Shown one piece after another: positions 10,637 through 35,012 of a stretch of 64,000 bases of DNA; position 1 is the stretch's first letter, and each line of letters opens with the position of its first letter. Position numbers and translations under genes: made by a program. The notes under the pieces were generated by a model. It ran no database searches, had not been told where the DNA came from, and saw only the letters and a program-made list of their open reading frames with translations. The DNA comes from Candidatus Woesebacteria bacterium. Its GTDB lineage: Bacteria > Patescibacteriota > Microgenomatia > UBA8517. The stretch lies in assembly GCA_963716475.1 (NCBI GenBank), contig OY970314.1, positions 74,479 through 138,478 of the forward strand, in the 5' to 3' direction.

Positions 10637-11518
10637 TTAGTACTTTCTCTCAAGGACGAAGTTGATCAGCTCCTTCAGCTCGCTTCTGGCAGGCTCTTTC
10701 GAAAGAAAGCCGAGGTTTTTATCAAATATTTCCAGGGCTTTGGTTTTAGCATCATTCGCCAGTTTCCTTGCATAGGGTACGCCTCTTGTATTTGCTAAGG
10801 TCATTTTTCCCTCTTTACCGTCTTGTTCTATATCCAGAATATCATCAATCAGTTGAAAACACCGTCCAAGATATAAACCAAAATCAGTAATCTTATTTAA
10901 TTGATTATGGGTTGCTCCGGCGAGGATCGCCCCCAGCCTCATCGGCCCGGCCATTGAGTAATATGCACTTTTACTGTCGGCTATAAAAAAATATTCATCC
11001 TGACTTACCTTTTTGGCCTTTTTATTGGTCCAAATTTGTTCGACTCCTTGTCCGAGGGCGGTTCTGAGTAGCATTTTGTAAAACTCTTCACTAATGGCCT
11101 TGGAGTTTTGGTCATTAATAATTTTCCACATAATAATGTGCAGAGAGTCACCGGCGTTAATTGCCAGCTCGTGGCCGTAAATTTTATGTAAAGCGGGCTT
11201 ACCTCTTCTAACCGCCGAGCCGTCTTCAATATCGTCATGGATTAAGATCCATTCTTCGGAGAGCTGCATCGCCGCAGCAACCTTAAAAGCCTTTTGCCTT
11301 TTGGCTCCAAGAGCCTGTGCCGTGAGAAGAACCAGGGTGGGGCGCAGGTACTTGCCCTTCCTTTCCGGGTAAATTCTGTTTATTTTCCAGTACAAATTTA
11401 TGTCCTTTTTGTATTTGTCTGGGATCCGGAATTGGGTAGGGTAACTCGGATCCCTCAAATATTTTTTAATTTCTGGCCAGACGAGCTGTCTGGTCCTTTC
11501 TAAAGTTTTCTGTATCAC
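10637..11518 (-). CDS. trans-polyprenyl diphosphate synthase (FPP/GGPP synthase family)
   Basis: First Asp-rich motif ILIHDDIEDGS and second FQLIDDILD. The ORF track extends to 11611, but that would overlap the uppS 5' end and promoter. A GTG at 11518, preceded by a minus-strand TATAAT, gives a family-typical N-terminus (VIQKTLERTRQLVWPEIKKYL). Confidence 0.75.
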   Translation of the reverse strand: MIQKTLERTRQLVWPEIKKYLRDPSYPTQFRIPDKYKKDINLYWKINRIYPERKGKYLRPTLVLLTAQALGAKRQKAFKVAAAMQLSEEWILIHDDIEDGSAVRRGKPALHKIYGHELAINAGDSLHIIMWKIINDQNSKAISEEFYKMLLRTALGQGVEQIWTNKKAKKVSQDEYFFIADSKSAYYSMAGPMRLGAILAGATHNQLNKITDFGLYLGRCFQLIDDILDIEQDGKEGKMTLANTRGVPYARKLANDAKTKALEIFDKNLGFLSKEPARSELKELINFVLERKY

Positions 11519-11524
11519 AGCCGT

Positions 11525-11557
11525 ATTATATCGCACGAATGCCTTGTGGTATAATTT
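11525..11557. promoter_or_regulatory. back-to-back -10 elements for divergent, apparently leaderless ispA-like and uppS transcripts
   Basis: Plus strand TGGTATAAT (11549-11557) lies 6-7 nt before the uppS ATG at 11564. Minus strand GATATAATA (complement of 11525-11533) lies about 6 nt before the GTG at 11518. Confidence 0.35.
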
Positions 11558-11563
11558 CCTGAT

Positions 11564-12841
11564 ATGTCGGAGACAATATCGCTTCCCAGAGGCACAGTAA
11601 TTCCCAGCCACATCGCTATGATCTTAGACGGCAACAGACGTTGGGCCAGGGCCCGCGGTCTGAAGCCTTGGGAAGGTCATTATCATGGTTTTAAAGCGGT
11701 CGAAAAGCTTGCCGAAGCTGCCAGGCAATTGGGAGTACATACCTTTACCGTTTGGGCATTTTCTACAGAAAATTGGGAGCGTCCCAAAGAGGAGGTCGAC
11801 GCGATAATGAATCTCTTCCGGAAGGCTCTTAAAGAAAAAGAAAAAGAATTCCATCGGGACAGGGTTGCCTTAGTTCACCTGGGCAGGAAAGACAGATTGC
11901 CTGAGGATATCAGCCGGGAATTAACCAGAATCGAAAAAGATACAGCGGTTTACTCTCAAAACCACGTCTTTAACTTGGCGGTAGATTATGGGGGTAGAGA
12001 TGAGATTTTAAGGGCCACTAAGAAAATCGTTGAAAATAAAGTTCCGGCAGCCAAGATTGATGAAAAACTGTTTGAAAGCTACCTGGATACAGCAGGACAA
12101 CCGTATCCGTCCCCGGATCTATTTATTCGCACATCAGGAGAGCAGCGTACAAGCGGCCTTCTTCCTTGGCAGATGAGTTACACTGAATTTTATTTTGAGT
12201 CCGAGCACCTTCCGGATTTTACTCCTGAAAAACTTAAAGTGGCGGTTTTAGACTTTAGCAGGCGCAGGCGTAGGTTTGGCGGTGACGATACTACCAGGCA
12301 TTTTGAATTCAACCCGGGAGTTACGGCAAGACTTGAGATTGATTGGTGGAGGCTTCGGAATGTTCCCGGAGGTATGAGGATAAGGGACTATGCGATGAAG
12401 CACCTTAGAGAGCAATACGGGCTTTCTAAGAAGCTTGCAATTGAAGCCGCCAAATATTTGATTGAAGCAGTCGCCGAGGAGAAGGATGAAAAATGGGACA
12501 AGGCCACCGAAAGAATGAAAAAGTTCTATATGCTTATAAAAGAGGAGGTTAAACTTGCTTTCGAACCCAGGATAGTTGCTTCAATGGAGGTAGATTTTGT
12601 CAGGAAAATGGAAGGTAAAGATAGTGTGGCCGCGTCTTCCGAGGCAGAAAATATTGCCCGGGAGCATCTCGCCGAAGTATACAGAATCTCACTTCTTCAA
12701 GCCGCCAAGGCGGCTCATCTTAAGGTTCTGGCCTCGGTTGAAAGAAACATGGCTCTGGCCGGCTTGGGGGAAGAGCATTGGGCTAAAGCCGAAGATTACT
12801 TGTCAAAATATTACTCGGCACTAAAGGAACGCGTGGCATAG
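11564..12841 (+). CDS. uppS: undecaprenyl (cis-prenyl) diphosphate synthase with about 180-aa C-terminal extension of unknown function
   Basis: HIAMILDGNRRWA, TVWAFSTENWERP and RTSGEQRTSGLLPWQ…FSRRRRRFGG motifs across about 245 aa. An additional about 180 aa (RLEIDWWRLRNVPGG…) has no recognisable domain. Confidence 0.8.
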   Translation: MSETISLPRGTVIPSHIAMILDGNRRWARARGLKPWEGHYHGFKAVEKLAEAARQLGVHTFTVWAFSTENWERPKEEVDAIMNLFRKALKEKEKEFHRDRVALVHLGRKDRLPEDISRELTRIEKDTAVYSQNHVFNLAVDYGGRDEILRATKKIVENKVPAAKIDEKLFESYLDTAGQPYPSPDLFIRTSGEQRTSGLLPWQMSYTEFYFESEHLPDFTPEKLKVAVLDFSRRRRRFGGDDTTRHFEFNPGVTARLEIDWWRLRNVPGGMRIRDYAMKHLREQYGLSKKLAIEAAKYLIEAVAEEKDEKWDKATERMKKFYMLIKEEVKLAFEPRIVASMEVDFVRKMEGKDSVAASSEAENIAREHLAEVYRISLLQAAKAAHLKVLASVERNMALAGLGEEHWAKAEDYLSKYYSALKERVA

Positions 12842-15350: not shown

Positions 15351-15394
15351 TTGACAAACGTTCCCATGGTTGGTAACAATTAATTAGTAGCAAA
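15351..15394 (+). promoter_or_regulatory. sigma-70-like promoter upstream of giant gene 1, sharing a 15-mer with the gene 2 promoter
   Basis: TTGACA (15351) -N17- TAACAAT. ATGGTTGGTAACAAT is identical to 20453-20467. Confidence 0.4.
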
Positions 15395-18300
15395 ATGCCC
15401 ACAAAAGAAAAAATCTCCGCGGTAAAAAAAGTTTTGGAAGGAATTTCTGTCTCTTCTGTTGCATCTGAGGCCGGGGTTGCCAGAAAAACAATATATTCGT
15501 GGCTAAATATTTATAAAGCCGCTGCCAAAAGAAACAAAAAAACCTGTCTCTTGCCCAAATATGTGGCGGGAAGGGCTCACCCGAGGGAATATACGCACAC
15601 TTTGGAGCAGAAGACAGTAAGACTAATAAAGAAGGACCCGACACTTAGCGTTTCCAAAATGGCTGAAAGATTAAACGCAGGACATCATGCGGTTTACAAT
15701 CTTTTAAAGGCCTTAAAATTGAACACAGAAGATTCCAGGCTTGCATACTCCCGGATTTACTCATATCCCGGTATTTTTGACCCCCAAATTAAGGAATCGG
15801 TTGCAAGGAAAATTGTGAATTCGGAAGGAAAAGTCACGGATATTTCCAGGGAGCTACGGGTTTCCAGAAAGACTATATATAAATGGTTAAAAGAATACAA
15901 AGAGAAGGGAACAGTAAGAAATAACTATTTGAAAGGTTTTGAACACCCCAGATCACTTGGCCCGGAGGCGGAAGCGTCAGTGCTCTCGCAAGTCGTAAAG
16001 GCGCCGGAACTTTCAATTCATGCCTTGGCCACCGGTTTAAACTTTTCCAATCATGCGGTTTTTAATATTCTAAAAAGAAATTTCCTGACTCAAAGAAATG
16101 CCAGGATTATCTATTCTCAGGCTCAGGCTATCCGGGTTTCCGAAAAACCGGAAGCTATCGGTTTTATCGACAGGATAAAGAGTGTTTTTGAAACCTTTAC
16201 TCCGAATCTGGCCCCGGCTCCGCCTCCGGGGGGAAAATCCAAGTTTAGCCCTCTTCTTAAAATCTCCCTGGCTTCGATAATCGTTTTACCGCTTTTCACT
16301 CTTGCCCTGGTCTATTGGGTGAATCTATTAAGGTCCGGTGCAGCAGGGAACGTCGTCGGGCTTATCTTTGCCACAATATCCCTGATTATGGGTACTTTCT
16401 TCTTTTTATATTCACTCAAATATTATTTTACGGTCGCTTTGGTTCTTTCCCGCACCCAGCAGGAAGGGTCAAAAAGCCGTACTTCTATCGGTCTTGAACC
16501 CAATCTCGATCACGTAATTCTCACAAAGAAGCCATACATATCAGTTCATATACCTTTTTATAATGAGAAGAATGTAGTAGAGCGTGCAATTGAGGCTTCA
16601 ACCAATTTCGATTACCCGGAGTATGAAGTGATTCTTTGTGATGATTCAACCGATGAAACAACAACCATTATCAGGGATTATCAAAAGAAATATCTTTCAA
16701 AAGGGGAGAGCTTAAAAATAACTACCAATAGTCAAGACGGCTGGGAGCTGTCCCATGTGGATGTCAGACCGGGAGTAACCCTTAAACATCTTCACAGGAT
16801 CTCAAGAGAAGGTTACAAGGGGGGAGCACTCAGGCTAGCTCTTACTCAGACTGATCCCAGGGCTGAGTTTGTCTCTGTCTTTGATGCCGATTTTGTTCCA
16901 TATCCTGATTCTCTAAACCTTTTCCTCAAGTACTTTAAAGCTGAGAATAACATGAGTGAGGATTATACAGTAAGTAAGGTTGCTGCGGTTCAAGGTTACC
17001 AGTGGCATGTACTTAATAAATCCGAAAACTGGATAACCAGGGGTGTCAGAAGTGAATATGCAGGTAGCTACGTTATCGAAAGAGCGGGAACTGAAATCTA
17101 TGGGGGACTAAAACAAATCTCGGGGTCAGTATATATGATTAGACGTAAGCCCCTAGAAGAAGTAGGCTGGGCCACATCAATCACTGAGGACTTTGAACTT
17201 ACTCTCAAACTATATAATGCCGGCTACAAGGTGGTCTATACACCTTATATACAAGCTCCTGCAGAATGTGTATCAACCCTAAGACGCTTAGTGAGGCAAC
17301 GTATGCGTTGGGCCGAGGGTCATTCTTTCAATGTCAAAAAGATGTTTGCAAAGCTTATGTTCTCTCCGAAACTTTCTTCTGCCGAGAAGTTTGAAACGGT
17401 TTACCTTGCCCCTTACTACCTTCAGGCATTCTTTTTTGTAGTCGGAACTCTTTCCTGGTTTATCAGTGAGACTCTCCTGCCTGCCCGTCTGCCTTTCTGG
17501 ACAGAACTTTGGGGATGGAGTCTGGTCTTAACCAACATGGTAGCCCTTCCCCTTATGAACACCGTCGGAATGTTCCTGGAAGAAAGTGAACAGAAGGACT
17601 ATACAGGAATACTATCATTCGTCGCTCTTTCATACCTTGTGGTCCCGTTTCAGGCCTACGCGGCTGTCAAGGGCTTTCTGGAGACCTCAGAAGGGCCTTG
17701 GTTTAGAACTCCCAAGACCGGTAGAATCACAGACGTCTTTGCCAGGGGTAAATTCTACAGGCTTATCAGACAGATCCTTCCCAGAAGAGCCACCTCATTC
17801 CAAAGTACTTATTCATACAACTACATTACCTTAACGACAGCAAATAATAGATTTAGCAATTTTAAAATAAAAAGGTCGGGAAATAAATATATTTCAAAAG
17901 CATTACTTACGGGATTAACGATTATTATTTTACTTTTGAATCAACTTAGCTTCTTTGCCCCGGGAGTACTTGCGGCAAGTCCTAACCCTACTATTGAACA
18001 ACAAATAAATTTTATGGATAAATTATACTCTACAACCAGCACGAGTGCCGCACCGGGCGATAATTCTTTAGGAATGTTTACTTGGAATGACTCAAAATAT
18101 AATAACGCAACTGTTAATATGGACTATGATGCTGGGAAAAGCGGAAACTTGTCTTATGGCCTAACTTCTGTGGGACTTTCTTTGGTTAATGGAACAACAT
18201 ACACACCGGCAATAAGGTATCAATGTCTTGCAGTGAGTGGAATAGCAACCGAATACGCTATTCCAGGGTTATATACGTCAGGTGGAGTTTTAGTTCAATT

Positions 18301-19282
18301 CTCAGAAGTTTCAATTTCTCTCGGCGAGGTTCCGGGTGGGAAATGTCCTACTTCAGCGAACAGAACACCTGCATATATTGCTGCGGCACGCCTAAGAATT
18401 GTACAGACAAATGCTACCGGAATTACAAATACCAGAAACATGATTGAACTGGGAGATGGTGAAACCATTTCAACAGGTACAACAGCAACTCAGCTAACTT
18501 ACCCCAAATATTGGCTTTATACATCGGGAAATTATGACGGGACTGTTACTACGACTTTTGAAGCGACTGTTTGGAGGGCCGGTGGCAGTTCATACACCGC
18601 CTACGTATGTCTGTATTCTACAGCAGGCAGTGAGATCGGGTGTGTGAGTACCACAAGTACATCCCCGGCTTACCCGACCGCAGTAAGCGTAACCCTGTCA
18701 AACGGAACCGAATATGAAGTAAGAGTCAAAGCCAGCGCAGCCGCAAAAACTGTATATATTGCAAACGCTAAAGTTATAGTTGATCAAGCAGCGGCAGGGG
18801 GAATTACCAAATTGGAAACAGTGCAACATTATAATAACACTCTGGCAACGGAATCAACATCTTCCTATGTTTCTAAGCAATTTTTAACCGAGTTTGTTTT
18901 GGATAACTGGTATGGCGGAACGTTTGCTGCCTATTTTGAGTCGGATATAAAGACTAATAACAGTTCAAATGCCTATTATGCTCGTTTGTACGATATTTAT
19001 AATGCTACCCCTATGGGAGAGATTACAGGTAATGATACTTCCTATGTTAGAAAAACCAGTTCGGATATATGGAGTTCTCTTGCTGCGGGTGGCAATACAA
19101 TGATAGACGTTCAACTGAAAAATAATTCGACCAGCACCACCTCATCATCAAATTCTTGGTTAATCATTAAAGTAACAAATTTACAAGTGCCCGAGAAGCT
19201 TATTTTTGCCCTGCCGTTGATATCCTTAATCCCGATTATAATTAAAAAAAGGAAGGAGATTCTATTAAATAGAAATGGTTGA
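15395..19282 (+). CDS. giant multi-domain surface protein 1: IS630-like HTH repeats + processive GT2 (cellulose-synthase-like) + Ser/Thr-rich ectodomain + VPE-type exosortase sorting tail
   Basis: 1295 aa. Two HTH pairs (…ARKTIYSWLNIYK…, …SRKTIYKWLKEYKEKG…). GT2 motifs VHIPFYNEKNVVERAIE, ILCDDSTDETT, FDADFVP and QRMRWAEGH (QxxRW), plus gating-loop-like WFRTPKTGRITD. Multiple TM helices. C-terminal tail VPEKLIFALPLISLIPIIIKKRKE. Confidence 0.85.
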   Translation: MPTKEKISAVKKVLEGISVSSVASEAGVARKTIYSWLNIYKAAAKRNKKTCLLPKYVAGRAHPREYTHTLEQKTVRLIKKDPTLSVSKMAERLNAGHHAVYNLLKALKLNTEDSRLAYSRIYSYPGIFDPQIKESVARKIVNSEGKVTDISRELRVSRKTIYKWLKEYKEKGTVRNNYLKGFEHPRSLGPEAEASVLSQVVKAPELSIHALATGLNFSNHAVFNILKRNFLTQRNARIIYSQAQAIRVSEKPEAIGFIDRIKSVFETFTPNLAPAPPPGGKSKFSPLLKISLASIIVLPLFTLALVYWVNLLRSGAAGNVVGLIFATISLIMGTFFFLYSLKYYFTVALVLSRTQQEGSKSRTSIGLEPNLDHVILTKKPYISVHIPFYNEKNVVERAIEASTNFDYPEYEVILCDDSTDETTTIIRDYQKKYLSKGESLKITTNSQDGWELSHVDVRPGVTLKHLHRISREGYKGGALRLALTQTDPRAEFVSVFDADFVPYPDSLNLFLKYFKAENNMSEDYTVSKVAAVQGYQWHVLNKSENWITRGVRSEYAGSYVIERAGTEIYGGLKQISGSVYMIRRKPLEEVGWATSITEDFELTLKLYNAGYKVVYTPYIQAPAECVSTLRRLVRQRMRWAEGHSFNVKKMFAKLMFSPKLSSAEKFETVYLAPYYLQAFFFVVGTLSWFISETLLPARLPFWTELWGWSLVLTNMVALPLMNTVGMFLEESEQKDYTGILSFVALSYLVVPFQAYAAVKGFLETSEGPWFRTPKTGRITDVFARGKFYRLIRQILPRRATSFQSTYSYNYITLTTANNRFSNFKIKRSGNKYISKALLTGLTIIILLLNQLSFFAPGVLAASPNPTIEQQINFMDKLYSTTSTSAAPGDNSLGMFTWNDSKYNNATVNMDYDAGKSGNLSYGLTSVGLSLVNGTTYTPAIRYQCLAVSGIATEYAIPGLYTSGGVLVQFSEVSISLGEVPGGKCPTSANRTPAYIAAARLRIVQTNATGITNTRNMIELGDGETISTGTTATQLTYPKYWLYTSGNYDGTVTTTFEATVWRAGGSSYTAYVCLYSTAGSEIGCVSTTSTSPAYPTAVSVTLSNGTEYEVRVKASAAAKTVYIANAKVIVDQAAAGGITKLETVQHYNNTLATESTSSYVSKQFLTEFVLDNWYGGTFAAYFESDIKTNNSSNAYYARLYDIYNATPMGEITGNDTSYVRKTSSDIWSSLAAGGNTMIDVQLKNNSTSTTSSSNSWLIIKVTNLQVPEKLIFALPLISLIPIIIKKRKEILLNRNG

Positions 19283-19838
19283 AAAAAGGAAAATTATAAA
19301 TATTTTGCTTATAGCCAGCCTAATTTTGGCTTTACTGCCTTTTTATGTGAGCTTTCAGGATTTACTTACAAATATAGTTATGAAGGTAAATTTGTATAAA
19401 GCTTTACAAAACACAATTGTGCCATATGAAATGAAAGTGGTAGGCGGAATTATAAACCTGTTACGTTTTCCGATTAGCGCAGGCAGTAGTTATTTTTCAT
19501 GGAATATAGCCAATGGTAAAAAAGAAGCAGTCTATTTGGCCTGGAACTGTATTGGTTGGCAGACTATGATACTGTTTTTGGTGACATTAGTTACAGGTTT
19601 TTCAAAAAGACACCTCTTAAGTTCAAAAATTGAAGCTATTTTAATAGGAGCGCTAGGGACATATATAATAAACATTGTAAGGATTACTGTTGTTATTTTG
19701 ATCTATTTCTGGTTTGGCCGGGGGTTTGGAATAATATTCCACGATTACTTCTCATCTCTAATTACAATATTCTGGTTAATAGGGTATTGGCTGTTTGTTT
19801 ATAAACATACCCTAATAGAAAAATCCGTCGAAGAGTAG
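19275..19838 (+). CDS. mini exosortase/archaeosortase-like polytopic membrane protein (cassette 1)
   Basis: 187 aa, about 5 TM. Conserved WNCIGWQ (Cys), NIVRITV (Arg) and IFHDYF (His) shared with the two paralogues downstream of the other giant genes. Its ATG overlaps the giant gene's end by 8 nt. Confidence 0.7.
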   Translation: MVEKRKIINILLIASLILALLPFYVSFQDLLTNIVMKVNLYKALQNTIVPYEMKVVGGIINLLRFPISAGSSYFSWNIANGKKEAVYLAWNCIGWQTMILFLVTLVTGFSKRHLLSSKIEAILIGALGTYIINIVRITVVILIYFWFGRGFGIIFHDYFSSLITIFWLIGYWLFVYKHTLIEKSVEE

Positions 19839-20437: not shown

Positions 20438-20473
20438 TTGACAGGTGTTAGGATGGTTGGTAACAATGAATAT
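20438..20473 (+). promoter_or_regulatory. sigma-70-like promoter upstream of giant gene 2
   Basis: TTGACA (20438) -N17- TAACAAT, then ATG 20474. The ORF track's TTG start at 20438 is this -35 box. Confidence 0.4.
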
Positions 20474-23400
20474 ATGCCCTTTTCCGAAGCTAAAAGAGAA
20501 AAGATCGTTTTATCCGTACTAAAGGATAATATTGCGGTTTCGGAAGTCTCCAGAAACTACTCTGTTGCCCGAAAAACTATTTACTCTTGGATAAAGAGGT
20601 ATAAAAAGGGAAGTCTTGCTCCACTATATACAAAGGGCAGGAAACACCCGGCGGCCGTATACCCGAAAGCCTATTCTTATATAAGTAGATGGGCTGTAGG
20701 GCACCCCAAGTGGGGATGCCGCACTTTGAGTAAAAGATTAAATGAAAAAGGAATCAGCTTGAGCTACGTTCAGGTTAACAGATTGTTGAACACAATCGGA
20801 GCGGAGACTTATGACAGAAGGTTGAATTATGCCAGAAACTTTGCCGGTCCGGGGAGAACCAGGGAGGATGTCAGGCTTGAAATTGTCAAAAAGGCCGTTA
20901 CCGGGAAAATTTCCATTACAACTCTTTCCGAAAACTACAAAGTTGCCCGTAAGACCATATATAAATGGATAGCGAAATACCGGGCCATTGGTAACATTAA
21001 AGATTCGTACGTCGTTGGTGAGGCTCATCCCAAGGCAATCTACCCGAAAATTACGCAGCAAGTACTCGACTTGGTCGTTACAAACCCCGGTTATTCGGTA
21101 CGCACTCTGGCTAAATCATTTCCGGCATCCTCTTGGACCATCTGGAGTATTTTAAATAGAAATAATCTGAATACATATAATTTAAGGCTCGAATATTCCA
21201 GGAATATATCTGAGGCTGCCGAAGAGAAAGTCTCGACAACGGGAGTTTCCGAAAGGATAAGATCTGTTTTTGAAAGCTTTACTCCAAATCTGGCTCCGGC
21301 CCCGCCTCCGGGGAAACGTAAAATCTTCAACTTCTTCATTATTTCAGTCTTCCTCTTATCAATATCCTTAGCAATTTTCTATTGGGGATCCGTAATTGTT
21401 CACGCTCCGAATATTGCCGGGTCCATAGGCATGATTTTTGCAGGCGTCTCACTGTCACTCGGAATGTTTTTCTTCCTTTATTCTCTTAAATACTATATTT
21501 CTACAGCGATAGTGCTTTCATATTCACAGAAAGAGGGCTTAGATGCCTCGAGAGTAAGCGCTACCGGCTTAAACTCAGACCTCAGTAACATTCATCTTGA
21601 ACGGCATCCTTATGTCTCGGTTCATCTGGCTCTCTATAACGAGAAGAATGTGGTGGAAAGACTGATGAAAGCAGCTACTTCTTTCGATTACGACAATTAT
21701 GAAGTAATCATCGCGGATGACTCAACTGATGAAACCACCGACAAAATCAGGGAGTTTCTGAAAACATTCCTTCCTAAAGGTGAATCGCTTCGGCAAACCA
21801 AAGGGGACGGGTGGGCAATGACAGAAGTTGACATAAGGAGCGGGGTTGTCTTTAAACATGTCCATAGAACCACAAGGATGGGTTATAAAGGGGGAGCGCT
21901 GAAGCTTGCCCTTTCTCTTACCGACCCGAAAGCTGAATTTGTTTCTGTCTTTGATGCCGATTTTGTGCCTTACCCAGATTCCCTGATGCTATTTCTTAAA
22001 TACTTCAAACTACAGAATAATGGATCAGAAGACTACAAAACAAGTAATACTGCATCAGTTCAGGGCTATCAGTGGCACGTACTTAATAAATCAGAAAACT
22101 GGATTACTAGGGGAGTCAGAAGTGAGTATGCAGGTAGCTACGTAATAGAAAGAGCCGGAACCGAAATCTACAAAGGCCTAAAGCAAATCTCGGGATCAGT
22201 TTACATGATCAGGCGCGATGTTTTGGAAGGAATAGGTTGGGGTACTTCTATCACTGAGGACTTTGAGCTTACCCTGAAACTCTACGAAAAAGGCTACAAA
22301 GTGGTTTATACGCCGTATATTCAGGCTCCGGCTGAATGCGTATCGACCCTAAGAAGACTTGTCAGACAACGTATGCGTTGGGCGGAAGGACATTCTTTCA
22401 ATGTCAAAAAGATGTTCGCAAAGCTTATGTTCTCTCCAAAACTTTCTTCCGCCGAGAAGTTTGAAACGGTTTATCTTGCCCCTTACTATCTACAGGCATT
22501 ATTCTTCCTCATCGGAACTCTCTCCTGGTTCATTTCGGAAACCATTTTACCCGCCCGCCTTCCTTTCTGGACAGAGCTTTGGGGATGGAGTTTGGTTCTG
22601 ACCAATATGATTTCACTGCCGCTTCTAAACACAGTCGGACTTTTCTTAGAGGAATCGGACAGAAAGGATTACTCGGGTATTCCATCTTTTATAGCTCTTT
22701 CATATATAGTTGTTCCGTTTCAGGCCTATGCGGCTGTAAAAGGCTTTCTGGAGAAGGAGGAAGGACCATGGTTTAGAACTCCGAAAACCGGCCGCATTAC
22801 GGATGTTTTCAAAAGAGGTAAGTTCTACAAATTTATTTCCGGGATCTTGCCGGGGAAGGCTGCCGGTTCTGCCACGAGTTATGATCTAAGTCCTTATCTT
22901 GCCCTGACCTCAGCCAATAATAGATTCAGCTCGTTCTCCATTCAAACAAGAAAAGGCAGAAGGTGGGTGGGAAAACTAATGCTAACCTCAATGCTTATTA
23001 TTTCCAATCTTCTTCTTTCTTTTTCTCCTTATATTGAATCAAGGGACGGCAACAGCCAACCTCCTCCGGGAACAGGTATTCTTATGGATGGCAGTACAAA
23101 AGGATCGGGAGGCAAGGTCAATTTAACTCCTGAGCAGCAGCAGTCTTTGGACAAATCGATTAAAGCGAATAACCAAAAAACAAGCTTTAAACTGGTTAGC
23201 GATGTCTCGGCAGCAGAAATATCCGGAGGCAGTGAGGTGAACACCTCCTTTGATGTTAAAAAGAAAGACCTTGAACTTAGCGGGGGAAATACCACCTTTA
23301 CAACTGATGAAAATCCCCAATTTACCTTAAAGCAGAACGACGGTTTTTGGGAATTTATCAAGAATATTTTCATTAAAGAAAAACCCTTGAAAGATCAGGT

Positions 23401-26400
23401 TGTTGTAACAGTTTTGGACTTAAAAGGTAAGGAGGTGGGAAGCCCGCAGGTGGTAGAAGGTGGAATTGATGATTTAAGTATAAATCTTGACAAAACAACC
23501 CTTACTCCGGGCGGATATACTCTTGAGATCAAAAGTGGGAGTAGCCCCGTTATCACCCAGGATTTCAGTTGGGGAGTGCTGGCAATAAATACCAATAAGT
23601 CGGTATATAGTCCGGGTGAAGACGCCTCCATTTCAATGGGGGTTCTTAATGAAGTTGGAGAAACGCTTTGTAGCGCGGGACTAACGCTTGATATTACAGA
23701 CACGGCAGGCACAGTTACCGCTTTAACCACAAAGGAGGGCACCATTAAAGTCAGCGATGAATGCAGCCTCAAGGGCTTCAGCCTGAAACCCGACTATGAA
23801 GCAGCCTACAAAACAACGGTTGCAGGAAAGTACAGCATGGTTCTGACTGCAGAGACTCTTAACGGCAAATATGTTATCAAGGGTTGGTTTGAGGCAAAAG
23901 ACTCGGTCGATTTTGACGTCGAAACGATTACGGCCTCCAGAATTAATCCGGTTTATGAATACCCGGTTATTTTTATAGTTAAGGCGGGTAAAGACTACAA
24001 TGGCATTGTTGAAGAAAAAGTCCCGGCCGGCTTTGAAATCAGTAAACTCAACGACTTAAAGTTGAATAACTATCTGGATTCTAAAGGGGAAAGTACGGCA
24101 AGCGGTAAACTTCAGGAGACACTGGTTAATGACGGTTCACAGGAGGCGGGACAAAAAACACTCCGTTGGATTGTTGACTGGAAAAAAGACCAGACTTATG
24201 TTCTTGCATACGCTTTTAAAGCGCCGATGGTCAGTCCAGAATTTTATCTACTCGGGCCGCTCTGGATCGGGGCATATGAGGGAGCGGGAGGTTGGCAGAT
24301 AGCCGCGGATAAGGTCCCTGCTGGGATTATTGTCGGTTGGCCGTCAACTGTAGCCTCAATTCCTAATCACTGGAGCAGGGTTTCAGGCGCGGCTCTTGAC
24401 GGGTACTTTTTAAGATCAGTAACAGCAACTGATCCGTCGGGTACTCCCGGAGGAAATGCCAGCCATACTCATTCACCGGCGAGTCATACTCATTCCGTTC
24501 CTGTCCATACACATACAGTTCCCGCTTTTGCCCAATCAACCAATACTTCGGCAACGACGGGTAACTCTACGGGTTCCGCCCGTGATACTCATACTCATGC
24601 GGCATTTAGTTCCGGAAATTCCAACGTAACCGTCAATAATGCCCAGACGGTTCCTTTTGCGGGACTTTCCAATGACCCCGATAATTCAACCGTCATCTGG
24701 ATCCAGTCGGACGGAGACCCGTCTACCGAAATTCCGGTAGGGTCTTATGTTTACTTTGACTCAAACACCATGCCGGGAGCCAACTGGGGTAGAGTAAAGG
24801 GAAATTACTTCCTTAAAGGTGCGGCAACGGGTTTAGGGGGAGGAACCGATACGGTAACAGGTTCCGCAACTCATACCCACGCCGCCTCAGCCGACCATAC
24901 CCATACTGAGGCTGCCCATACCCATTCAGGGAGCTCGGCAGGAGGTTCACTTGCTGTTTCCAGTACGGGAACTGGGTCTTACTCTCCGAGTGGCCATACA
25001 CATACCGTTACCTCAAGCTCCGTTGCGGCAACGGAGGGAGGAGCATCGGTAACCCCGACAGTCGGAGTGGCCGCTCCCTCGGGAGAACCTCCTTGGTACA
25101 AACTTAATATCATTAGTAAGTCTACAGGTGCTAATGAAACTCCTTTAAATGTCATTGCCATGTGGACCGGAACTCTGGCAACAATTCCCGACGGTTGGGT
25201 AATTTGTGACGGAACAAATGGAACTCCAAACCTGGGTACAAACTTTATCAAAGGCGCAAATGCCGACGGGGAGCTCAATACCACCGGGGGTTCCCTTACC
25301 CACACTCATGGGGCAGGCAATACCCATACACATACAATAAATGCTCACGTACACACCTGGACGGTTGGAGCTGCCTCCGGAACCGGTGTTGGATTAACGG
25401 GAAATGGAAGATCAGCCGTGGTCAGTACTCATACACATACCCTCAGCGCTGCGCAAACATCAAGTGGCGGAGGTTCAACAGGAACGGCAACTATTACGGC
25501 CGACTCGCAATCTAATCTTCCTCTCTACAAAGAGGTTGCCTACATTATGTATATCGGTAAGACTGTTGCCGGTAAAGCCTATTCGGATGAAGCAACCAGT
25601 ATCTGGGCCGGTTGTGACAACTCGACTGCCAGAATAAGTTTGGTAGTTAACGGCGGTACAGCCTCCACAACCTCATGCAGCAGTTCAGACGGATCTTTCA
25701 GTTTCAAGAATGTTACTCACGCGACAGATAATCCAATATCGGTATTTTTTAATACCGCAGGTAGCAATGCCGACAAAGGTGTGGCAGTTACTATCGCCAA
25801 CGATGCCACTACTCCGATTACCCTTAATCCCAGAAAAAATATTGTCTGGATGAGGAGTGAGAAAGCAACACCGACCATTACCAACTCCAATCTGGCTCAT
25901 TGTTATGCCTCAACCCCCGCAAGCTGTGCCAATGTCCCGTATTCTGCTTCGGGAGCCAATATAACCCTAACTACTGGAGTTGAGCTTCATGTAGAAAGCA
26001 GTATGACATATGATCCCGGGGGAACCACTGCAACCACCGGTACCGGAAGTCTGCATGTGGATGACAATGCTGTCGCATACTTGGATACTACTGGCAATAC
26101 CATTGCTAATAATATTTTAGTGGATGCCGGGGCGACCATTCATATTGATGCCAGTACGGCAGTAAACGGGGGAAATATCACGGTTACAGGTAACGGAATA
26201 GTATCTTCAGCCGCCGGAACCGTAACTATGGGGGCAAGCGGAACCATTGGGGGAGGATCAACAGGATCTACCTTCCAGTTAACAGATCTTGTTGTTTCTT
26301 CGGGGACTACAACCCTGGGGACGGATGCCGACAATATACTGGACTTTACCGGGGATATCAACGTTTCGGCCGGAGCCGTGCTTGCCATGAACAATAAAAC

Positions 26401-29400
26401 CGCTAATGTAGACGGAGGAAATCTGACGACAACTTCTACCGGGTCAGTTACCTGTTCAGGTTGTACGACTGGCGGTTTAACAATTTCAGGAGTCGGAACA
26501 ACAAATGGTATAGGCGGGGGAGGTGGAGCTATAACTTTATACAACCTGACACTTGACGGATCAACCAATACCACAACAGTCGGGTCAAGCGCCATTACGG
26601 TAACCAATGATGTAACAATAGGTACGGGAAGAACCCTGTCAGGAGCCGCATCAGGAACAATCTATGTGGGACACAACTGGGCCAACAGCGGCACTTACAA
26701 TGCCAACTCGGGAACTATTAATTTAAATGCAGCAGCCGATACTGTTCAACAGATAACAGGTGCGACCACATTTTATAATTTATATGTAGCTACTGGAGAT
26801 AGGATTATTAAATTTGGTTCATCAACCGCTTTTACCATTGATACCGGAGGAACCTTTACGGCAACAGGGGATTCCTGTTCGGCACTTGTGGTAATCCGTT
26901 CAACCACTTCCGGGAGTGCCGCAACAATTACCAAGACAGGTTCCGTTTCCTTCTCATATATAGATATACAGGATATCAACTTTTCGGCTTCTGCCTCGGC
27001 TTCTAATTCAGTCGATTCCGGAAACAACAGTAGTATCGTCATTGCAGCCAATAGCTGTCTTGGTGCATCAACCAATAACCAAGCCGCAACAGGTCATTCA
27101 TTCCAGAGAAAAGTATTCTATGATTCCGGGAATAATGTCTACTGGGGTTTCTACCATGACGGAACCCAGATCGAAGTCAGGTATTCATCAAATAGTGGCT
27201 CTACTTGGAATGTAGAAAATGACCATCTGGTACAAAATACCAACGACTTTTCCGTCTGGGACCAGACAATCTCCTCCTACTACGTCTTTTTGGCAGCCAA
27301 AAGCAGCGACAGTATTGTCTTAAGAAGAGGAACAATAACTTCAGGTGCAATCTCATGGGACAGTGAAACAACTCCGGTTACAGCCTTTACGGGGACGGGT
27401 TCAGGCGATTCTTATTCCTATCCCTATATCTCTGCCGATTCATCCGGTAATCTCTGGGTGGGAGCCAGATATTTTAACGGATCAAGTTATGTCTACAAAG
27501 CAGTCAAAAGTAACAATGCAGGAAGTGCTACCTGGACAAACGCTGCTTTTACCTGGGGAGATCCTTCTCAAATCTCTAATGATCAAGCCGACCCTAACGT
27601 TTTTGGCAATGTAGTATCCATAGGCTCGCTGAATATGTACGCAACATTCGTAGTAGGTACAACTATCAAAGGCTGTAAATACACCAATTCTCCTCCTGCC
27701 TGGAAGAATTCAGCAGGGACAGATTCATGCGTAACAACCGAGGGTAGTGGCGGCGGGGAGTCAACATATTTTGATAGCTTAAGTACCGGGTTAGTTGCGT
27801 ACTGGAAAATGAATGAAACTTCCTGGACAGGAGCGAGTAACGAGGTGGTTGATTCATCAGGCAACGGTAACAATGGAACTCGTGTAGGCGATGCAACAAC
27901 AACGGCTGCAGGGTTTTATAGGTCAGGAACGTTCGATGGGACGGGAGATAGGGTTTCTGTTCCTGACAAGACAGACTGGACATTATCGTCCGGAATAGAT
28001 CTGACATATTCAACCTGGATTAATTATACCGTATTGCCGGGGAGCACCAATTGGCCTGGTATTGTTGAAGGAGGTGATGATATGTATGGTTTCCAAATGA
28101 ATGGGCCCACTACCGGGAATATAGTTGTAGATTGGTGGGACGGTACTGTTGACCATACATCATCTTCGCAGGCTGTATCTGTCGGTACCTGGTATCATGT
28201 CGTGATAACTTTAGATTTTGGTGTAACTAATGGTTCCCATTGGTATTTTAACGGTAGAGACCTTGGAACTTTTACCGCACAAGATCGCAGTGTAAATCCT
28301 GATGCACTATATATCGGAGGTAGTGTTACCAATCCCGTTTCAAACAACGCTGTTAATGGAAAGATTGACGATCTGAGAATTTATAACAGGCTACTCTCTG
28401 GTGAAGAGGTTGCCAAACTTTATCAATATGCCCCGGATAGAGTCAATATCGACGATGCCAGTGATTTTAATGCTCCGTCCGGTAGACAAGTTGTTAGAGC
28501 GAAAAACGGGGATTTGTATACTTTTGTCAATGATGCGGGGACATGTGGGGTATGGAAGTCAACTGATGGAGCAAGTTGGTCAGAACAGGATAGTACTCAT
28601 CATAAAACTTGTATGAGTTATTCGGGGGTATCAATAGCGATTGATTCAACTGATAAGTTACATCTTTTATACGCTTCAGGATCCAACACCTTACAATATG
28701 ACACGTTTACTGCCGGGGCTTTTTCTATTCTTAATGAAAATATTTATAATGATGTTGGTGGCAATGGGCTAGGGGGTTTTGATATTGCTGTTGATGCAAA
28801 TAATATTCCCCACGTAGTCTATGTATACATAGACACGTTTACCGATAATCAACTTGGTTACGATAACCGTGTAGGTGGCGCTTGGAATGGTTCAGATGCT
28901 AACCCCGATACTGATAGTGTCGGATTGCTGTCTCCAACAATAGAGATTAATGAAACTGGGTATCCGGAAGTCTCATATATAAAGGCTAGTACTGGGGTTT
29001 TAGTGGCTAAGGCGGGAAACGGAAATGACCCCAATTTATGGGCAGGTTATAGTATAGATACGAGCGTTAATGTTACTGGCGGTCAGGGGGGTGCTTCAAT
29101 TGCAGTAGACACCTTGACCGGTAATACGTGGATAGCGTATGTCGACGGGGATAACGATATTTCTTTGGCAAAATATTCAGGGACGGATTATTCCGGATGG
29201 GAGACAGCCGGTAACTGGGCCACCGTGACCAGTAAAAGCGACGATGGGTACGACCCGTCAATTGCCATTACCGGACCTTCCGATATTTATGTTTTTTATC
29301 AGGATGATGGGGTGGCGGATAACGGAACTAATAAAAGGATCTCTTACGATATATATGATTCGATAGGAGAAGATTGGGCCGGGGAAGTTCCCCTACAAAC

Positions 29401-33554: not shown

Positions 33555-34127
33555 ATGAATCAAAAAGCGCTTTTTAAACAAATACTGGCAACCCTTGTAA
33601 TTATATTGGCAGTTTTACCTGTGATTGTGACTTTTTCGGCAGTTTTGACTTCATTTTTCGAAAAAATTAAGCTTTATGTGTGGCTTCAGGATCTGGCTGT
33701 TCCTTTTGAAAGCAGACTGGTTGCGGTTCTAATCCAACTCTTTGGAATCAAAGGAATTATAACCCCCGGCAGCAGTTTTGCCATGGTTTTGCGGACATCC
33801 TCGGGGACTTTTACCCCGGTTGCATTGGAATGGAACTGTTTGGGCTGGCAAAGCCTGATTCTATTGGGTCTTACCCTAATAACAGGCCTCAGGGGAGCTT
33901 ACACGGGTTTAAGTAAAGCCCAGGTTGTTCTTTTCGGAATACTCGGAACTTTTTTATCAAATCTATTCAGGATGGCTTTTATTGTCATTCTGGCTTTTTA
34001 TTGGAATTCATTTGCAGCTATGATTATCCATGATTATTTTGCCAGTTTTGTCGCTATCATCTGGATGTTATTTTTCTGGTGGTTCTCCTACAGGTATATT
34101 TTGGAGGAAAAACCTGCGGGAAACTAA
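33555..34127 (+). CDS. mini exosortase/archaeosortase-like polytopic membrane protein (cassette 2)
   Basis: 190 aa. WNCLGWQ, NLFRMAF and IIHDYF motifs. Paralogue of 19275-19838 and 41283-41888. Confidence 0.7.
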   Translation: MNQKALFKQILATLVIILAVLPVIVTFSAVLTSFFEKIKLYVWLQDLAVPFESRLVAVLIQLFGIKGIITPGSSFAMVLRTSSGTFTPVALEWNCLGWQSLILLGLTLITGLRGAYTGLSKAQVVLFGILGTFLSNLFRMAFIVILAFYWNSFAAMIIHDYFASFVAIIWMLFFWWFSYRYILEEKPAGN

Positions 34128-34435
34128 ACCAATTTTTGCAATTTGAAATCGGGGAAGAGACGCTTTTTAATCAGGATGTCGCTTTCCTCGCCTATTTTAA
34201 TCGCTTCCAGTAAATTCTTCACCCCAGCCAAATTGATGCCCTTATTTTGCGTTAGGTAGCGTACAAATTGGAGTTTATTGATATCCTCAATGGAGAATAG
34301 TCTTCTTTTGGACTCGGATCGGTAGGGAGTAATGAGCCCGAGACTTTCGTAAAGCATAATTGTCCGTGGATGAACTTTCAAAAGTCTCGCAGCTATGGAT
34401 ATAGGCAGAATTGGACTCTCACTAAGCTCAGTCAT
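34124..34435 (-). CDS. MerR-family (HspR-like) transcriptional regulator
   Basis: 103 aa. MerR HTH (…ISIAARLLKVHPRTIMLYESLGLITPYRSESKRRLFSIEDINKLQFVRYL…). Confidence 0.75.
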   Translation of the reverse strand: MTELSESPILPISIAARLLKVHPRTIMLYESLGLITPYRSESKRRLFSIEDINKLQFVRYLTQNKGINLAGVKNLLEAIKIGEESDILIKKRLFPDFKLQKLV

Positions 34436-35012
34436 ATTAATATGATAATAATTAAGTATATTAACCTGAAGATAATACTGTCAAGAGGAAAAAGAAATAA
34501 AATCTATTGTCGATTTTTTATTATAGCCAATACGTTCGATAATTTGATAGGATTAGGGTTCTAATAAAGTATTTACTCAATCGTGAAAAGCTATCAAAGA
34601 AAATAGCAACAACCCTTATAGAACATAATAATACCTATATATATGTATCCTGATCAATATTTTTCAATAATTACCATAAACATATAGGAGAATAACAGAT
34701 GCCGGACGGGCAGAAAGGTTAACATTTGAGGCTGATTTCGGAGTAATAAAATGACTCATATAGCCAGTTCTCTTATAACCAATCGTTATATTTCGAGATA
34801 TTAGTTTAGAAATATCTATATCCTCTAGTAACATAGCTATATTTGAATTGGAAAATATGAGATTTAAACCGTTATTATCAACAGTATTTTAACCCATAGC
34901 CTCTTAAATGAGGATACTATTGACCATTGACAGATGTTACCCACAAGGTGTTAACATAATATATTAGCATCGTTTTCACGGGATTTAGAAACTAATGTGT
35001 TAACACCCTGCC

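Follow-up and report, generated by a model that had tools for sequence, protein, structure and literature searches.

Giant synthase genes and their cassettes

The 64-kb window, by which we mean the whole stretch of DNA analysed, carries three genes (g1 to g3) for giant proteins that share one architecture, starting with a helix-turn-helix (HTH) module and ending with a C-terminal sorting tail. The genes, the domains of g1 that follow its HTH module, and the neighbouring exosortase/archaeosortase-family genes are placed as follows.

15395-19282, + strand: g1, 1295 aa; HTH module, linker, transmembrane (TM) hairpin, GT2 synthase, TM bundle, exo-domain and C-terminal sorting tail
16139-16246, + strand: Pro-rich linker of g1, aa 249-284, disordered in the AF2 model at aa 248-282 (pLDDT below 50), carrying a conserved F.P.LAPAPPP motif
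16247-16456, + strand: TM hairpin of g1, aa 285-354 (TM prediction and AF2 model)
16520-17374, + strand: GT2 catalytic domain of g1, processive synthase type, with DDSTDE, FDADF, SITEDFE and QRMRW motifs
19275-19838, + strand: exosortase/archaeosortase-family gene after g1 (TIGR04178, 38.3 bits, cutoff 23)
20474-31612, + strand: g2, about 3712 aa from the revised start; g1-like architecture, with a Laminin_G_3 domain inside the exo-domain
33555-34127, + strand: exosortase/archaeosortase-family gene in the g2 cassette (TIGR04178, 32.2 bits, cutoff 23)
35013-41273, + strand: g3, 2086 aa; g1-like architecture with 1.5 HTH repeats
41283-41888, + strand: exosortase/archaeosortase-family gene after g3 (TIGR04178, 31.6 bits, cutoff 23)

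The start of g2 was revised in the course of the analysis. The list of open reading frames begins this gene at TTG 20438, a triplet that belongs to a TTGACA promoter hexamer, and the true start is likely ATG 20474 (MPFSEAK...). Read from there, g2 appears leaderless.

Downstream of the HTH module, all three proteins match Pfam Glyco_trans_2_3 (1.7e-18, 1.6e-16 and 7e-18). The four motifs listed for the g1 catalytic domain are found in each of them and are invariant across 56 homologues. AF2 modelled the GT2 core at pLDDT above 90, and Foldseek matched this part to BcsA (4.6e-16) and HAS (1e-13), as well as to chitin synthases, over a range of E from 1e-16 to 1e-8. Model and matches together describe a GT-A fold flanked by a TM channel, as in synthases of the BcsA/HAS/CHS type; by sequence and model, the giant proteins are predicted processive BcsA/HAS-type GT2 synthases.

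The HTH module and the cytoplasmic GT2 domain are separated by two TM helices. This places the module on the GT2 side of the membrane and gives an integral membrane protein with a cytoplasmic domain of DNA-binding type. AF2 places no confident docking of the module onto the GT2 domain, and the linker between them is disordered.

At the other end of the chain, the tails of the three giants combine a PE-like motif (VPEK, VPEY and VPEN) with a TM helix and an Arg/Lys cluster, in the manner of PEP-CTERM proteins, and each giant has an adjacent exosortase/archaeosortase-family gene. A PEP-CTERM-like tail is present in 71 of 141 long homologues. Those of the remainder that were listed are a mixture: some break off within the exo-domain or tail, and some have another kind of ending. 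Each giant gene belongs to a conserved cassette. We found no description of exosortases in Patescibacteria/CPR in the full-text literature.

The N-terminal HTH module and its relatives

The three translated ORFs contain all the HTH peptides quoted in the preliminary description of this DNA, and the interval it had singled out, 15395-16150, encodes g1 residues 1-252, exactly the HTH module. The modules are laid out as follows.

15395-15772, + strand: g1 HTH repeat 1, aa 1-126 (HTH-A aa 3-42, G..HPR linker, HTH-B aa 68-106, tail helix aa 112-121)
15773-16150, + strand: g1 HTH repeat 2, aa 127-252 (HTH-A aa 130-171, HTH-B aa 190-228, tail helix aa 234-248)
20474-21232, + strand: g2 HTH module, two repeats (20474-20854 and 20855-21232)
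35013-35633, + strand: g3 HTH module, a lone HTH-A (35013-35231) followed by a full repeat (35232-35633)

The repeating unit of about 125 aa comprises a three-helix HTH-A, a G..HP[RK]/GRP linker, a three-helix HTH-B and a tail helix, and R30, Y34, W36, Y40 and Y118 are invariant in an alignment of the six units of g1 to g3. Two or more HTH pairs had been proposed for every protein; this holds for g1 and g2, which have two units each, and fails for g3 with its lone HTH-A and single pair. All three N-termini have Pfam matches above gathering, mostly in two stretches per protein, the families being HTH_23, HTH_28, HTH_32, HTH_29, HTH_Tnp_1 and HTH_Tnp_IS630, with E-values of 1.2e-16 for HTH_23, 5.7e-15 to 6.4e-17 for HTH_28 and 1.9e-9 to 1.2e-15 for HTH_32; matches to LZ_Tnp_IS481 are weak. 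AF2 modelled the module at pLDDT 94, and the model and its Foldseek matches show a bipartite DNA-binding domain of two HTHs with a linker. The earlier assignment to a transposase-type HTH is borne out by these matches and by the helical model, which speak against a non-transposase HTH family or a non-helical segment.

The modules are also strongly charged (net +24, +28 and +16, pI about 10). Among 110 homologous modules the median pI is 10.1 and 99% lie above 9, compared with 8.3-9.2 for the GT2 domains. Taken together, sequence and model indicate that the first 250 or so residues are a cytoplasmic, strongly basic, predicted DNA-binding module built of tandem bipartite units.

The preliminary description had assigned the module to IS630/Tc1-like transposases, and here sequence and fold give different answers. 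In NCBIfam scores per unit, the IS481 N-terminus ranks above IS630 in 5 of the 6 units (33-64 vs 26-40 bits). Repeat 2 of g1 is the sole, marginally IS630 unit (38.8 vs 35.7 bits for IS481), while the full repeat of g3 is the strongest IS481 match of the six (63.6 bits; 89 bits for the whole g3 module). When plasmids were searched by tblastn, every family-named match was IS481 and none IS630, the others being generic (integrase-core, transposase, HTH-domain protein). Foldseek matched the DNA-binding domains of Pax5/6, Mos1, Tc3, SETMAR and IstA over about 110 columns, the length of one unit, at probabilities of 0.93-1.0 but weak E-values of 0.05-0.5, and the best PDB sequence match of the module is a PRD paired domain. 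By sequence the unit corresponds to the whole DNA-binding part of a DDE transposase, the catalytic core being absent, with IS481 nearest and IS630 second; its modelled fold is like those of Pax paired domains and of the DNA-binding domains of Tc1/mariner. Of the proposed IS630/Tc1 identity, the Tc1 resemblance stands for the fold, while IS630 yields to IS481 at the level of sequence.

Each unit aligns to model positions of about 1-110 of the IS481 transposase (NF033577; HTH_28/LZ_Tnp_IS481 plus HTH_32), that is, to its whole DNA-binding part, but the rve integrase core is absent, the module scores far below the 224-bit full-length cutoff, and the unit is here tandemly duplicated and fused to a membrane enzyme. 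With IS630/Tc1-mariner transposases and Pax proteins (Tc3 1u78, Mos1 4u7b, SETMAR 7s03, Pax6 6pax) it shares two three-helix HTHs and a GRP-type linker, whereas DDE_3 is lacking and the IS630 profile (NF033545/HTH_Tnp_IS630) comes second to IS481. As previously noted, no DDE domain follows the HTHs: Pfam and NCBIfam found no DDE or rve catalytic family in the giant proteins, and the chain runs on through two TM helices into GT2. A profile built from the units and run against the six-frame translation of the window recovered only g1, g2 and g3 (1e-62 to 1e-97); the window holds no further module copies and no full-length IS630 or IS481 transposase.

The fusion is widespread. The search gave 1585 homologues, and transposase-type HTH Pfam domains occur in 102 of the best 120. 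With an HTH profile we obtained 205 cluster representatives at E<=1e-30, two HTH stretches being present in all of the top 150 and a GT2 domain in 52 of 55 long representatives. Some giant proteins carry the module but have no GT2 domain (P0131, P0137), and P0109 and P0110 have a MerR/HTH_17-type HTH in place of the transposase-type one. There is also a split version: the GT2 gene P0104 is preceded, at a distance of 24 nt, by an ORF of its own that encodes one full repeat. Most of the short HTH-only proteins in the database stop in the linker, TM or early GT2, and P0057 begins at a contig end; we considered them as stand-alone factors and judged them to be contig-end fragments.

These data show the fusion to be an old, conserved family of Patescibacteria (Woesebacteria-type). 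As it is conserved in frame in more than a thousand proteins, the module is domesticated, as had been suspected, rather than an IS insertion or a gene-calling artefact. The family has been named only by annotation pipelines. No published description of an HTH-GT2 fusion was found in the full-text literature, and a review of how mobile-element genes are recruited is silent on it.

An upstream element and the proposed autoregulation

A candidate cis element lies before each giant gene; the search for repeats covered the upstream intergenic regions. The elements are listed here with a MerR-family gene whose product competes with the HTH module as the candidate binding factor.

15351-15380, + strand: type A1 element before g1, TTGACA-AAC-GTTCCCATGGTTGGTAACAAT; readable as a -35 hexamer, 18-nt spacer and AACAAT, with a GTTCCC/GGTAAC dyad inside
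20438-20467, + strand: type A1 element before g2, TTGACAGGTGTTAGGATGGTTGGTAACAAT; an exact 15-mer is common to the g1 element
34124-34435, - strand: HspR-like MerR-family gene, 103 aa, divergent from g3
34927-34957, + strand: type B element before g3, TTGACA-GAT-GTTACCCAC-AAG-GTGTTAACAT; 19-nt spacer to TAACAT
34997-35006, + strand: palindrome GTGTTAACAC, second copy, 6 nt before the g3 ATG; also in loci L007 and L053

The pattern TTGACA-N12-20-G[GT]TAACA (about 30 bp) occurs 3 times in the window against 0.03 expected, only upstream of g1, g2 and g3. It also lies upstream of orthologues in genome loci picked by protein similarity, where same-register element pairs are 0.69-0.83 identical while four-fold degenerate sites of the orthologues are saturated (about 0.30 identity). 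An independent metagenome scan with a 21-nt type-A pattern gave 27 loci, of which 25 were readable, and a gene with the HTH module follows in all 25 (directly in 24, past an inserted ORF in 1). Part of the element reads simply as a sigma-70-like promoter, TTGACA-18-AACAAT. Recent duplication or gene conversion was rejected as the origin of the element common to g1 and g2, as the HTH-coding DNA of the two genes is unalignable and their GT2 DNA only 74% identical.

The element varies together with the third helix of the HTH. Comparing helix 3 with the boxes in 48 non-redundant genes, a sample in which shared subfamily ancestry is a confounder, we found the GGTAACA box paired with helix-3 [AS]RK[TAS][ILV]Y.W in 29/29 cases and the GTTACCCAC box with SRV..Y[RK]W in 7/7; the divergent boxes TCTGACA and TATGACA pair with SRDT or ARGT/SRNI. 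The same pattern is seen within this genome: the helix-3 octamers of g1 and g2 are nearly identical despite modules that are only 32% identical (GT2 domains about 75%, protein), and g3 differs from both in helix 3 and in element. P0108, which has the HTH-B half-module only, and P0109 lack the element, both being phylogenetically more distant GT2 homologues. P0104 and P0108 were intended as HTH-less controls and retain an HTH-B half-module, so they make a weak control.

We propose that each synthase is a membrane-tethered one-component autoregulator, acting through presumed binding of the module to the element at its own promoter, and give this proposal an even chance. The module would bind sequence-specifically to the dyad element of about 30 bp (GTTACC-type plus GGTAAC-type boxes), which would overlap the -35/-10 region of the protein's own promoter. 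Repression would be the more likely sign of regulation because the site covers the core promoter, and it would limit the expression of very costly giant genes. The preliminary description had raised autoregulation and nucleoid tethering as functions; of the two, autoregulation gains indirect support from the conserved, promoter-overlapping element, which covaries with the recognition helix. The link between module and element is correlational and confounded by shared subfamily ancestry. A multi-pass giant protein is, moreover, an awkward geometry for a tethered regulator.

Autoregulation might also operate in cis on the nascent chain, a version to which we attach a small probability. The module would leave the ribosome first and, during translation, occupy the operator in the promoter of its gene while the giant chain is being inserted into the membrane. 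The gene would thus be tethered to the insertion site, and its promoter would stay closed until diffusion or processing removes the protein. Cis-preference is known for transposases, for example IS911 OrfAB and IS10. If true, ultra-small cells would have in it a means by which surface synthases of extreme cost count themselves.

Alternatively, the module may bind DNA without regulating its own gene, serving instead to anchor the nucleoid, or some region of the chromosome, at the envelope, with the element being a MerR operator or a specialised promoter. We regard this combination as unlikely overall, with a chance still worth reckoning with. Tethering would act at the site of synthase and surface-protein assembly, either non-specifically or at other sites, and would suit a very basic module with four HTHs per chain and a flexible linker; non-specific tethering, however, needs no strongly conserved helix-3 motifs. 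The case for MerR is that a MerR-like gene recurs beside these clusters (upstream of g3 and in L053, L054, L008, L041 and L004), that the type-B element combines an over-long 19-nt spacer with a dyad within it, as in MerR-activated promoters, and that some homologues, P0109 and P0110, themselves bear a MerR/HTH_17-type HTH. Yet most type-A1 loci have no MerR gene across several kb of upstream flank, the dyad lies off-centre in the spacer, and MerR alone does not predict the covariation of helix residues with boxes. A MerR operator common to the MerR gene's own promoter was looked for and rejected: the promoters of the MerR genes lack the GTTACC/GGTAAC boxes. MerR may nonetheless bind at the GT2 promoters.

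It is a good deal more doubtful that the module has lost nucleic-acid binding and now serves the synthase for oligomerisation or regulation, much as PilZ does in BcsA or the leucine-zipper dimerisation region does in transposases. Many processive synthases (BcsA and relatives) do carry cytoplasmic regulatory domains, and both the LZ_Tnp_IS481 matches and the faster divergence of the module relative to GT2 would fit such a role. Against it stand the pI of about 10 in 99% of homologues, the conserved R, Y and W at recognition-helix positions, the lack of confident AF2 docking on GT2, the covariation of a gene-specific upstream element with helix 3, and the presence of the module on giant proteins that have no GT2 domain.

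Release of the module by proteolysis in the F.P.LAPAPPP linker, yielding a soluble transcription factor, would be a variant of autoregulation and seems improbable to us. In favour are a conserved linear motif in a linker that is disordered elsewhere, the DNA coding for this motif, which is the sole g1/g2-alignable stretch upstream of the GT2 region (86% over 64 nt), and the HTH ORF before P0104, a natural split version. However, neither a protease gene nor evidence of cleavage was found, the short HTH-only entries have the look of fragments from contig ends, and the motif could equally be a membrane-proximal anchor. Finally, an artefactual fusion (a GT2 ORF accidentally joined to a pseudogene or IS fragment, or a gene-calling error) has a negligible chance, since the conservation data as good as refute it. 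On general grounds, a transposase HTH at the 5' end of a gene is often what is left of an IS, and the listed g2 start was indeed wrong, but the in-frame architecture recurs in three paralogues and hundreds of cluster representatives from many genomes, with a conserved linker and promoter and no DDE remnant.

Significance and comparison with known systems

Were the module to bind its own promoter, a processive polysaccharide synthase would double as a DNA-binding regulator. Recruitment of transposase domains is well known in animals (Pax, CENP-B) and, to our knowledge, poorly documented in bacteria, where this would be a large and ancient instance of host gene control by a recruited transposase DNA-binding domain. 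It would also open a first way into the regulation of envelope and surface biology in Patescibacteria, which are ultra-small, largely uncultured organisms with few recognisable regulators that probably attach to hosts by giant surface proteins. The proposal is directly testable, given defined sites of about 30 bp, two specificity classes in one genome, and soluble modules of about 250 aa confidently predicted by AF2.

As processive synthases, the giants share the D, DxD, TED and QxxRW motifs with BcsA, hyaluronan synthase, chitin synthase, PgaC and NodC. The known enzymes are regulated via PilZ/c-di-GMP or partner proteins; we know of no processive GT2 synthase reported to carry an HTH DNA-binding domain or to be fused to a surface domain of PEP-CTERM type, and our search of the full-text literature found no such description. 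In exosortase/PEP-CTERM EPS systems (XrtG- and XrtP-associated GT2; TIGR03111, NF053846) a GT2 gene adjoins an exosortase-family gene, as it does here. The present system differs in that synthase and sorting substrate are a single polypeptide. In addition, its exosortase-like proteins have only 187-201 aa, and there are three copies of the cassette.

The nearest parallel for the proposed mode of regulation is with ToxR, CadC and TcpP, in which a cytoplasmic N-terminal DNA-binding domain is joined to the membrane by a flexible juxtamembrane linker, an arrangement likewise predicted for the giants. Direct promoter binding at the membrane is the mode proposed for the giants. ToxR, CadC and TcpP own an OmpR-type winged helix, a single TM helix and a periplasmic sensor, none of which is a feature of the giants; in these the HTH is of transposase type and in tandem, and its carrier is a processive glycosyltransferase that crosses the membrane several times and bears a giant exo-domain.

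Architecture of the N-terminal module

The preliminary description of the three giant membrane GT2 synthase genes, here g1, g2 and g3, held that a transposase-type helix-turn-helix (HTH) module is followed by a GT2 domain rather than a DDE catalytic domain, and this was borne out by Pfam on all three proteins.

Giant synthase genes (ORF list)
15395-19282, + strand: g1, 1295 aa
20438-31612, + strand: g2, 3724 aa from a mechanical TTG start
35013-41273, + strand: g3, 2086 aa

The peptides quoted in that description were all found in the translations, and residues 1-252 of g1 correspond to 15395-16150. The N-termini match HTH_23 (1.2e-16), HTH_28 (to 6.4e-17), HTH_32 (to 1.2e-15), HTH_29, HTH_Tnp_1 and HTH_Tnp_IS630, all above gathering thresholds, and these transposase-associated HTH matches mostly form two stretches in each protein. 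Downstream lie the GT2 families Glyco_trans_2_3, Glyco_tranf_2_3 and Glycos_transf_2; no rve/DDE family was matched anywhere along the three proteins. Within the module, a unit of ~125 aa (HTH-A plus HTH-B) is repeated in tandem, with R30, Y34, W36, Y40 and Y118 invariant across an alignment of six units. The claim of at least two HTH pairs per protein holds for g1 and g2 (two full units each) but not for g3, which has a lone first HTH and one full unit. As a profile built from the units matched only the g1, g2 and g3 ORFs in a six-frame translation of the whole window, with no additional module copy or full-length transposase found there, chance is an untenable explanation for the HTH resemblance.

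An IS630/Tc1 origin had also been proposed. One unit superposes on the DNA-binding domains of Pax5/6 paired, Mos1, Tc3, SETMAR and IstA (Foldseek: ~110 columns, probabilities 0.93-1.0, E-values weak at 0.05-0.5), and the top PDB sequence match is the Prd paired domain (E = 0.005). Because no IS481 DNA-binding domain was found among the PDB matches, fold comparison cannot separate IS481 from IS630/Tc1. With NCBIfam models each unit spans positions ~1-110, the complete DNA-binding part, and IS481 scores best for five of the six units (33.2, 55.0, 39.7, 38.5 and 63.6 bits, versus 25.7, 40.2, 27.5, 25.6 and 37.0 bits for IS630); g1 unit 2 alone is marginally IS630 (38.8 versus 35.7 bits). When the g3 unit was compared with 72,556 plasmids by tblastn, 31 records matched: those naming a family name IS481, the rest are labelled integrase-core, transposase or HTH-domain protein, and none is IS630-named. 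The transposase derivation and the paired/Tc1-like fold thus stand, while the nearest sequence family is IS481 rather than IS630/Tc1.

In AF2 models built with 43-56 homologues, mean pLDDT is 94 over residues 1-250 and 82 over residues 1-800. A unit opens with the three helices of HTH-A (3-42 and 130-171 in the two units); a linker of low confidence with G..HP[RK] (GRP in g3) leads to HTH-B, also of three helices (68-106 and 190-228), and a tail helix with an Arg invariant in the family (R115, R237) closes the unit. The stretch at 248-282 is disordered (pLDDT <50), and is followed by two long TM helices (285-314, 317-354), a GT-A domain (DDSTDE, FDADF, SITEDFE, QRMRW) and further TM helices. 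Given the two TM helices between them, the module and the GT2 domain are predicted to share the cytoplasmic side of the membrane. The module carries a net charge of +24, +28 and +16 in g1, g2 and g3 (pI ~10) and is more basic than the GT2 domains (pI 8.3-9.2); across 110 homologues its median pI is 10.1, exceeding 9 in 99%. A flexible tether carries this module, a basic and well-folded tandem of bipartite HTH units in the cytoplasm. The GT2 part resembles BcsA (4.6e-16), hyaluronan synthases, chitin synthases and CesA, and by homology is therefore likely to be a processive, membrane-integrated synthase.

An F.P.LAPAPPP motif in the disordered stretch, conserved throughout the family, could be a processing or docking site. 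Its coding DNA in g1 (16168-16231) and g2 (21250-21313) is 86% identical over 64 nt, the sole stretch 5' of the GT2 region that can be aligned between the two genes, and encodes (R)I(K/R)SVFE.FTPNLAPAPPPG.

Genomic setting and distribution of the fusion

The C-termini of all three proteins are PEP-CTERM-like (VPE[KYN], a hydrophobic TM helix and a K/R cluster), a tail type present in 71 of 141 long homologues, and short exosortase/archaeosortase-family genes lie close by (TIGR04178 cutoff, 23 bits).

Sorting tails and neighbouring genes
10637-12841: polyprenyl diphosphate synthase and undecaprenyl diphosphate synthase genes, upstream of the cassettes
19187-19282: VPE[KYN] tail of g1
19275-19838: exosortase/archaeosortase-family gene directly after g1 (TIGR04178, 38.3 bits)
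31520-31612: VPE[KYN] tail of g2
31625-33550: TMEM260/PMT_2-like GT-C with TPR repeats, between g2 and its exosortase-like gene
33555-34127: exosortase/archaeosortase-family gene after the GT-C gene behind g2 (32.2 bits)
41190-41273: VPE[KYN] tail of g3
41283-41888: exosortase/archaeosortase-family gene directly after g3 (31.6 bits)

With such a tail on each giant protein and an exosortase-family gene nearby, synthase and sorting substrate would be a single polypeptide. The polyprenyl/undecaprenyl and GT-C genes fit a locus for lipid-linked glycosylation or the envelope, and together with the tails and exosortase-family genes they mark the region as a series of tandem cassettes for envelope and surface glycans.

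With g1 residues 1-800 as query, 1585 homologues were found, named as Patescibacteria, Woesebacteria and Daviesbacteria. Transposase-type HTH Pfam domains and GT2 occur together in 102 of the best 120, on which basis an artefact was rejected; the fusion defines a family. Among cluster representatives the HTH profile matched 5226 (E<=1e-3), of which 205 reach E<=1e-30, with two HTH stretches in all of the top 150 and a GT2 domain in 52 of 55 long representatives. Unit number varies (0.5, 1, 1.5 or 2), and the loci are almost all from Woesebacteria or other Patescibacteria. The architecture is visible in database annotations (the JGI pipeline label is 'cellulose synthase/PNAG synthase-like glycosyltransferase/transposase...') and apparently undescribed in the literature, where no account of an HTH-GT2 fusion was found.

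Several variants depart from this plan. In the GT2 homologues P0109 and P0110 (locus L049, 3001-7074) a MerR/HTH_17-type HTH takes the N-terminal place of the transposase-type module, apparently through independent recruitment of another DNA-binding domain to that position. As P0131 (2396 aa) and P0137 (1772 aa) bear the double module on giant exo-proteins (MG2 or H-type lectin domains) without GT2, the module may be associated with giant surface proteins and not with the synthase as such. In a split architecture (L051 1-537, L052 3-440) a one-full-unit ORF ends 24 nt before the GT2 gene of P0104; the N-termini of P0104 and P0108 keep only the HTH-B half-module, in which Pfam detects no HTH. 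The unrelated proteins P0171 (773 aa) and P0228 (679 aa) have 10-13 tandem HTH-A subdomains (..IAEELxIPxxTVxxWxxPYK..) and no HTH-B, behind an N-terminus judged by eye to be ankyrin-like.

A conserved element at the synthase promoters

TTGACA...ATGGTTGGTAACAAT lies upstream of both g1 and g2, whose upstream DNA shares an exact 15-mer unique to those sites in the window. A related element, TTGACAGATGTTACCCACAAGGTGTTAACAT, precedes g3, with a second GTGTTAACAC palindrome 6 nt before its ATG. The pattern TTGACA-N12-20-G[GT]TAACA has three matches in 64 kb, exactly upstream of the three genes, against 0.03 expected. A relic of recent duplication was rejected as the source of the element shared by g1 and g2, since their HTH-coding DNA is not alignable. 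Equivalent elements precede orthologues in loci picked by protein similarity alone; although four-fold degenerate sites show saturation over codons 1-250 (mean identity 0.30), element pairs in the same register are 0.69-0.83 identical. Metagenome contigs scanned independently with a 21-nt type-A pattern yielded 27 loci, with an HTH-module gene downstream in all 25 readable ones, directly so in 24; at L037 a small ORF is inserted. The element is under selection and gene-specific: the promoters it overlaps are those of the module-encoding genes and no others.

The TTG listed as the start of g2 (20438) belongs to the TTGACA -35 hexamer, and the real start is probably ATG 20474. As this ATG lies only 6 nt past the AACAAT -10 hexamer, the g2 mRNA would have no leader or almost none. 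In several database homologues the start is wrongly placed at the ATG within the element, and the protein begins 'MVGNN...'.

Types of the element
A1: TTGACA-N3-GTT...ATGGT.GGTAACAAT; spacer 17-18 nt; g1, g2 and orthologues
A2: TTGACA.AGTACCCATGAAAGGTAACAATG; spacer 16 nt; proteins with first unit KAEAAR.LGVSRKT
B: GTTACCCAC-N3-GTGTTAACAT; spacer 19 nt; g3-like proteins
C: GTTACCCAC; shifted directly 5' of the -35 hexamer; single-unit proteins

Of the common boxes, GTTACC(C) is the inverted repeat of GGTAAC. Because its position shifts relative to the -35 hexamer, the GTTACCCAC box behaves like a candidate site for protein binding in its own right, separate from the core promoter. Among 48 non-redundant genes, the GGTAACA box goes with helix-3 [AS]RK[TAS][ILV]Y.W in 29/29 and the GTTACCCAC box with SRV..Y[RK]W in 7/7; the altered boxes TCTGACA and TATGACA accompany helices SRDT or ARGT/SRNI. 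Such a pattern would be expected of a protein-operator pair, albeit confounded by shared ancestry. Both the candidate operator and the way it covaries with the recognition helix are new, and both can be tested.

Other features were seen around the gene starts. A small four-helix-bundle ORF separates the promoter element from the HTH-GT2 gene at two unrelated loci (L009 5202-5700, L037 346-780), and on reading its sequence we take it to resemble the 23S-rRNA-IVS protein. Long leaders with heptamer-like repeats (GGTTTAG/GGTATAG, AGCGTTT) occur at L031, L032 and L033. Conservation also extends to a CTGCC(C)A string near start codons (L018, L009, L053, L025, L028, L034, L046 and others; in the window, CCTGCC at 35007-35012 before the ATG and TGCCCA at 15396-15401). 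In type-B genes the string precedes the ATG; in type-A genes it is read in frame as x-Ala-Gln, and there the first residue varies (S/P/T) but the nucleotides CT are constant, which hints at nucleotide-level constraint.

Proposed autoregulation and competing explanations

We propose that the module binds the element at its own gene's promoter, each synthase thereby acting as a membrane-tethered autoregulator, a reading to which we give an even chance. Binding would more likely repress, as the element covers the -35 to -10 region.

The chief rival is that a small HspR-like MerR protein binds the element. Its conserved gene (101-103 aa) recurs beside HTH-GT2 clusters, usually ~0.5-0.7 kb ahead of the first synthase gene and divergent from it, and a spacer of 19 nt, as in the type-B promoter, is typical of promoters activated by MerR.

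HspR-like MerR genes
Window: 34124-34435, - strand
L053: 605-910
L054: 520-825
L008: 4884-5195
L041: 121-501
L004: 13879-14196

However, most A1 loci have no MerR gene nearby, and GTTACC/GGTAAC-type boxes are absent from the MerR genes' own promoters; that of the window gene (TTGACA-18-TATACT, 34484-34455) is without synthase-type boxes. MerR binding would also leave the covariation of helix-3 with the box unexplained. Alternatively, the module might be freed by cleavage within the conserved linker, or might have a protein-protein role without DNA binding. Should the synthases indeed be tethered autoregulators, their kin among known systems would be the membrane-tethered HTH regulators and the domesticated transposase DNA-binding domains.
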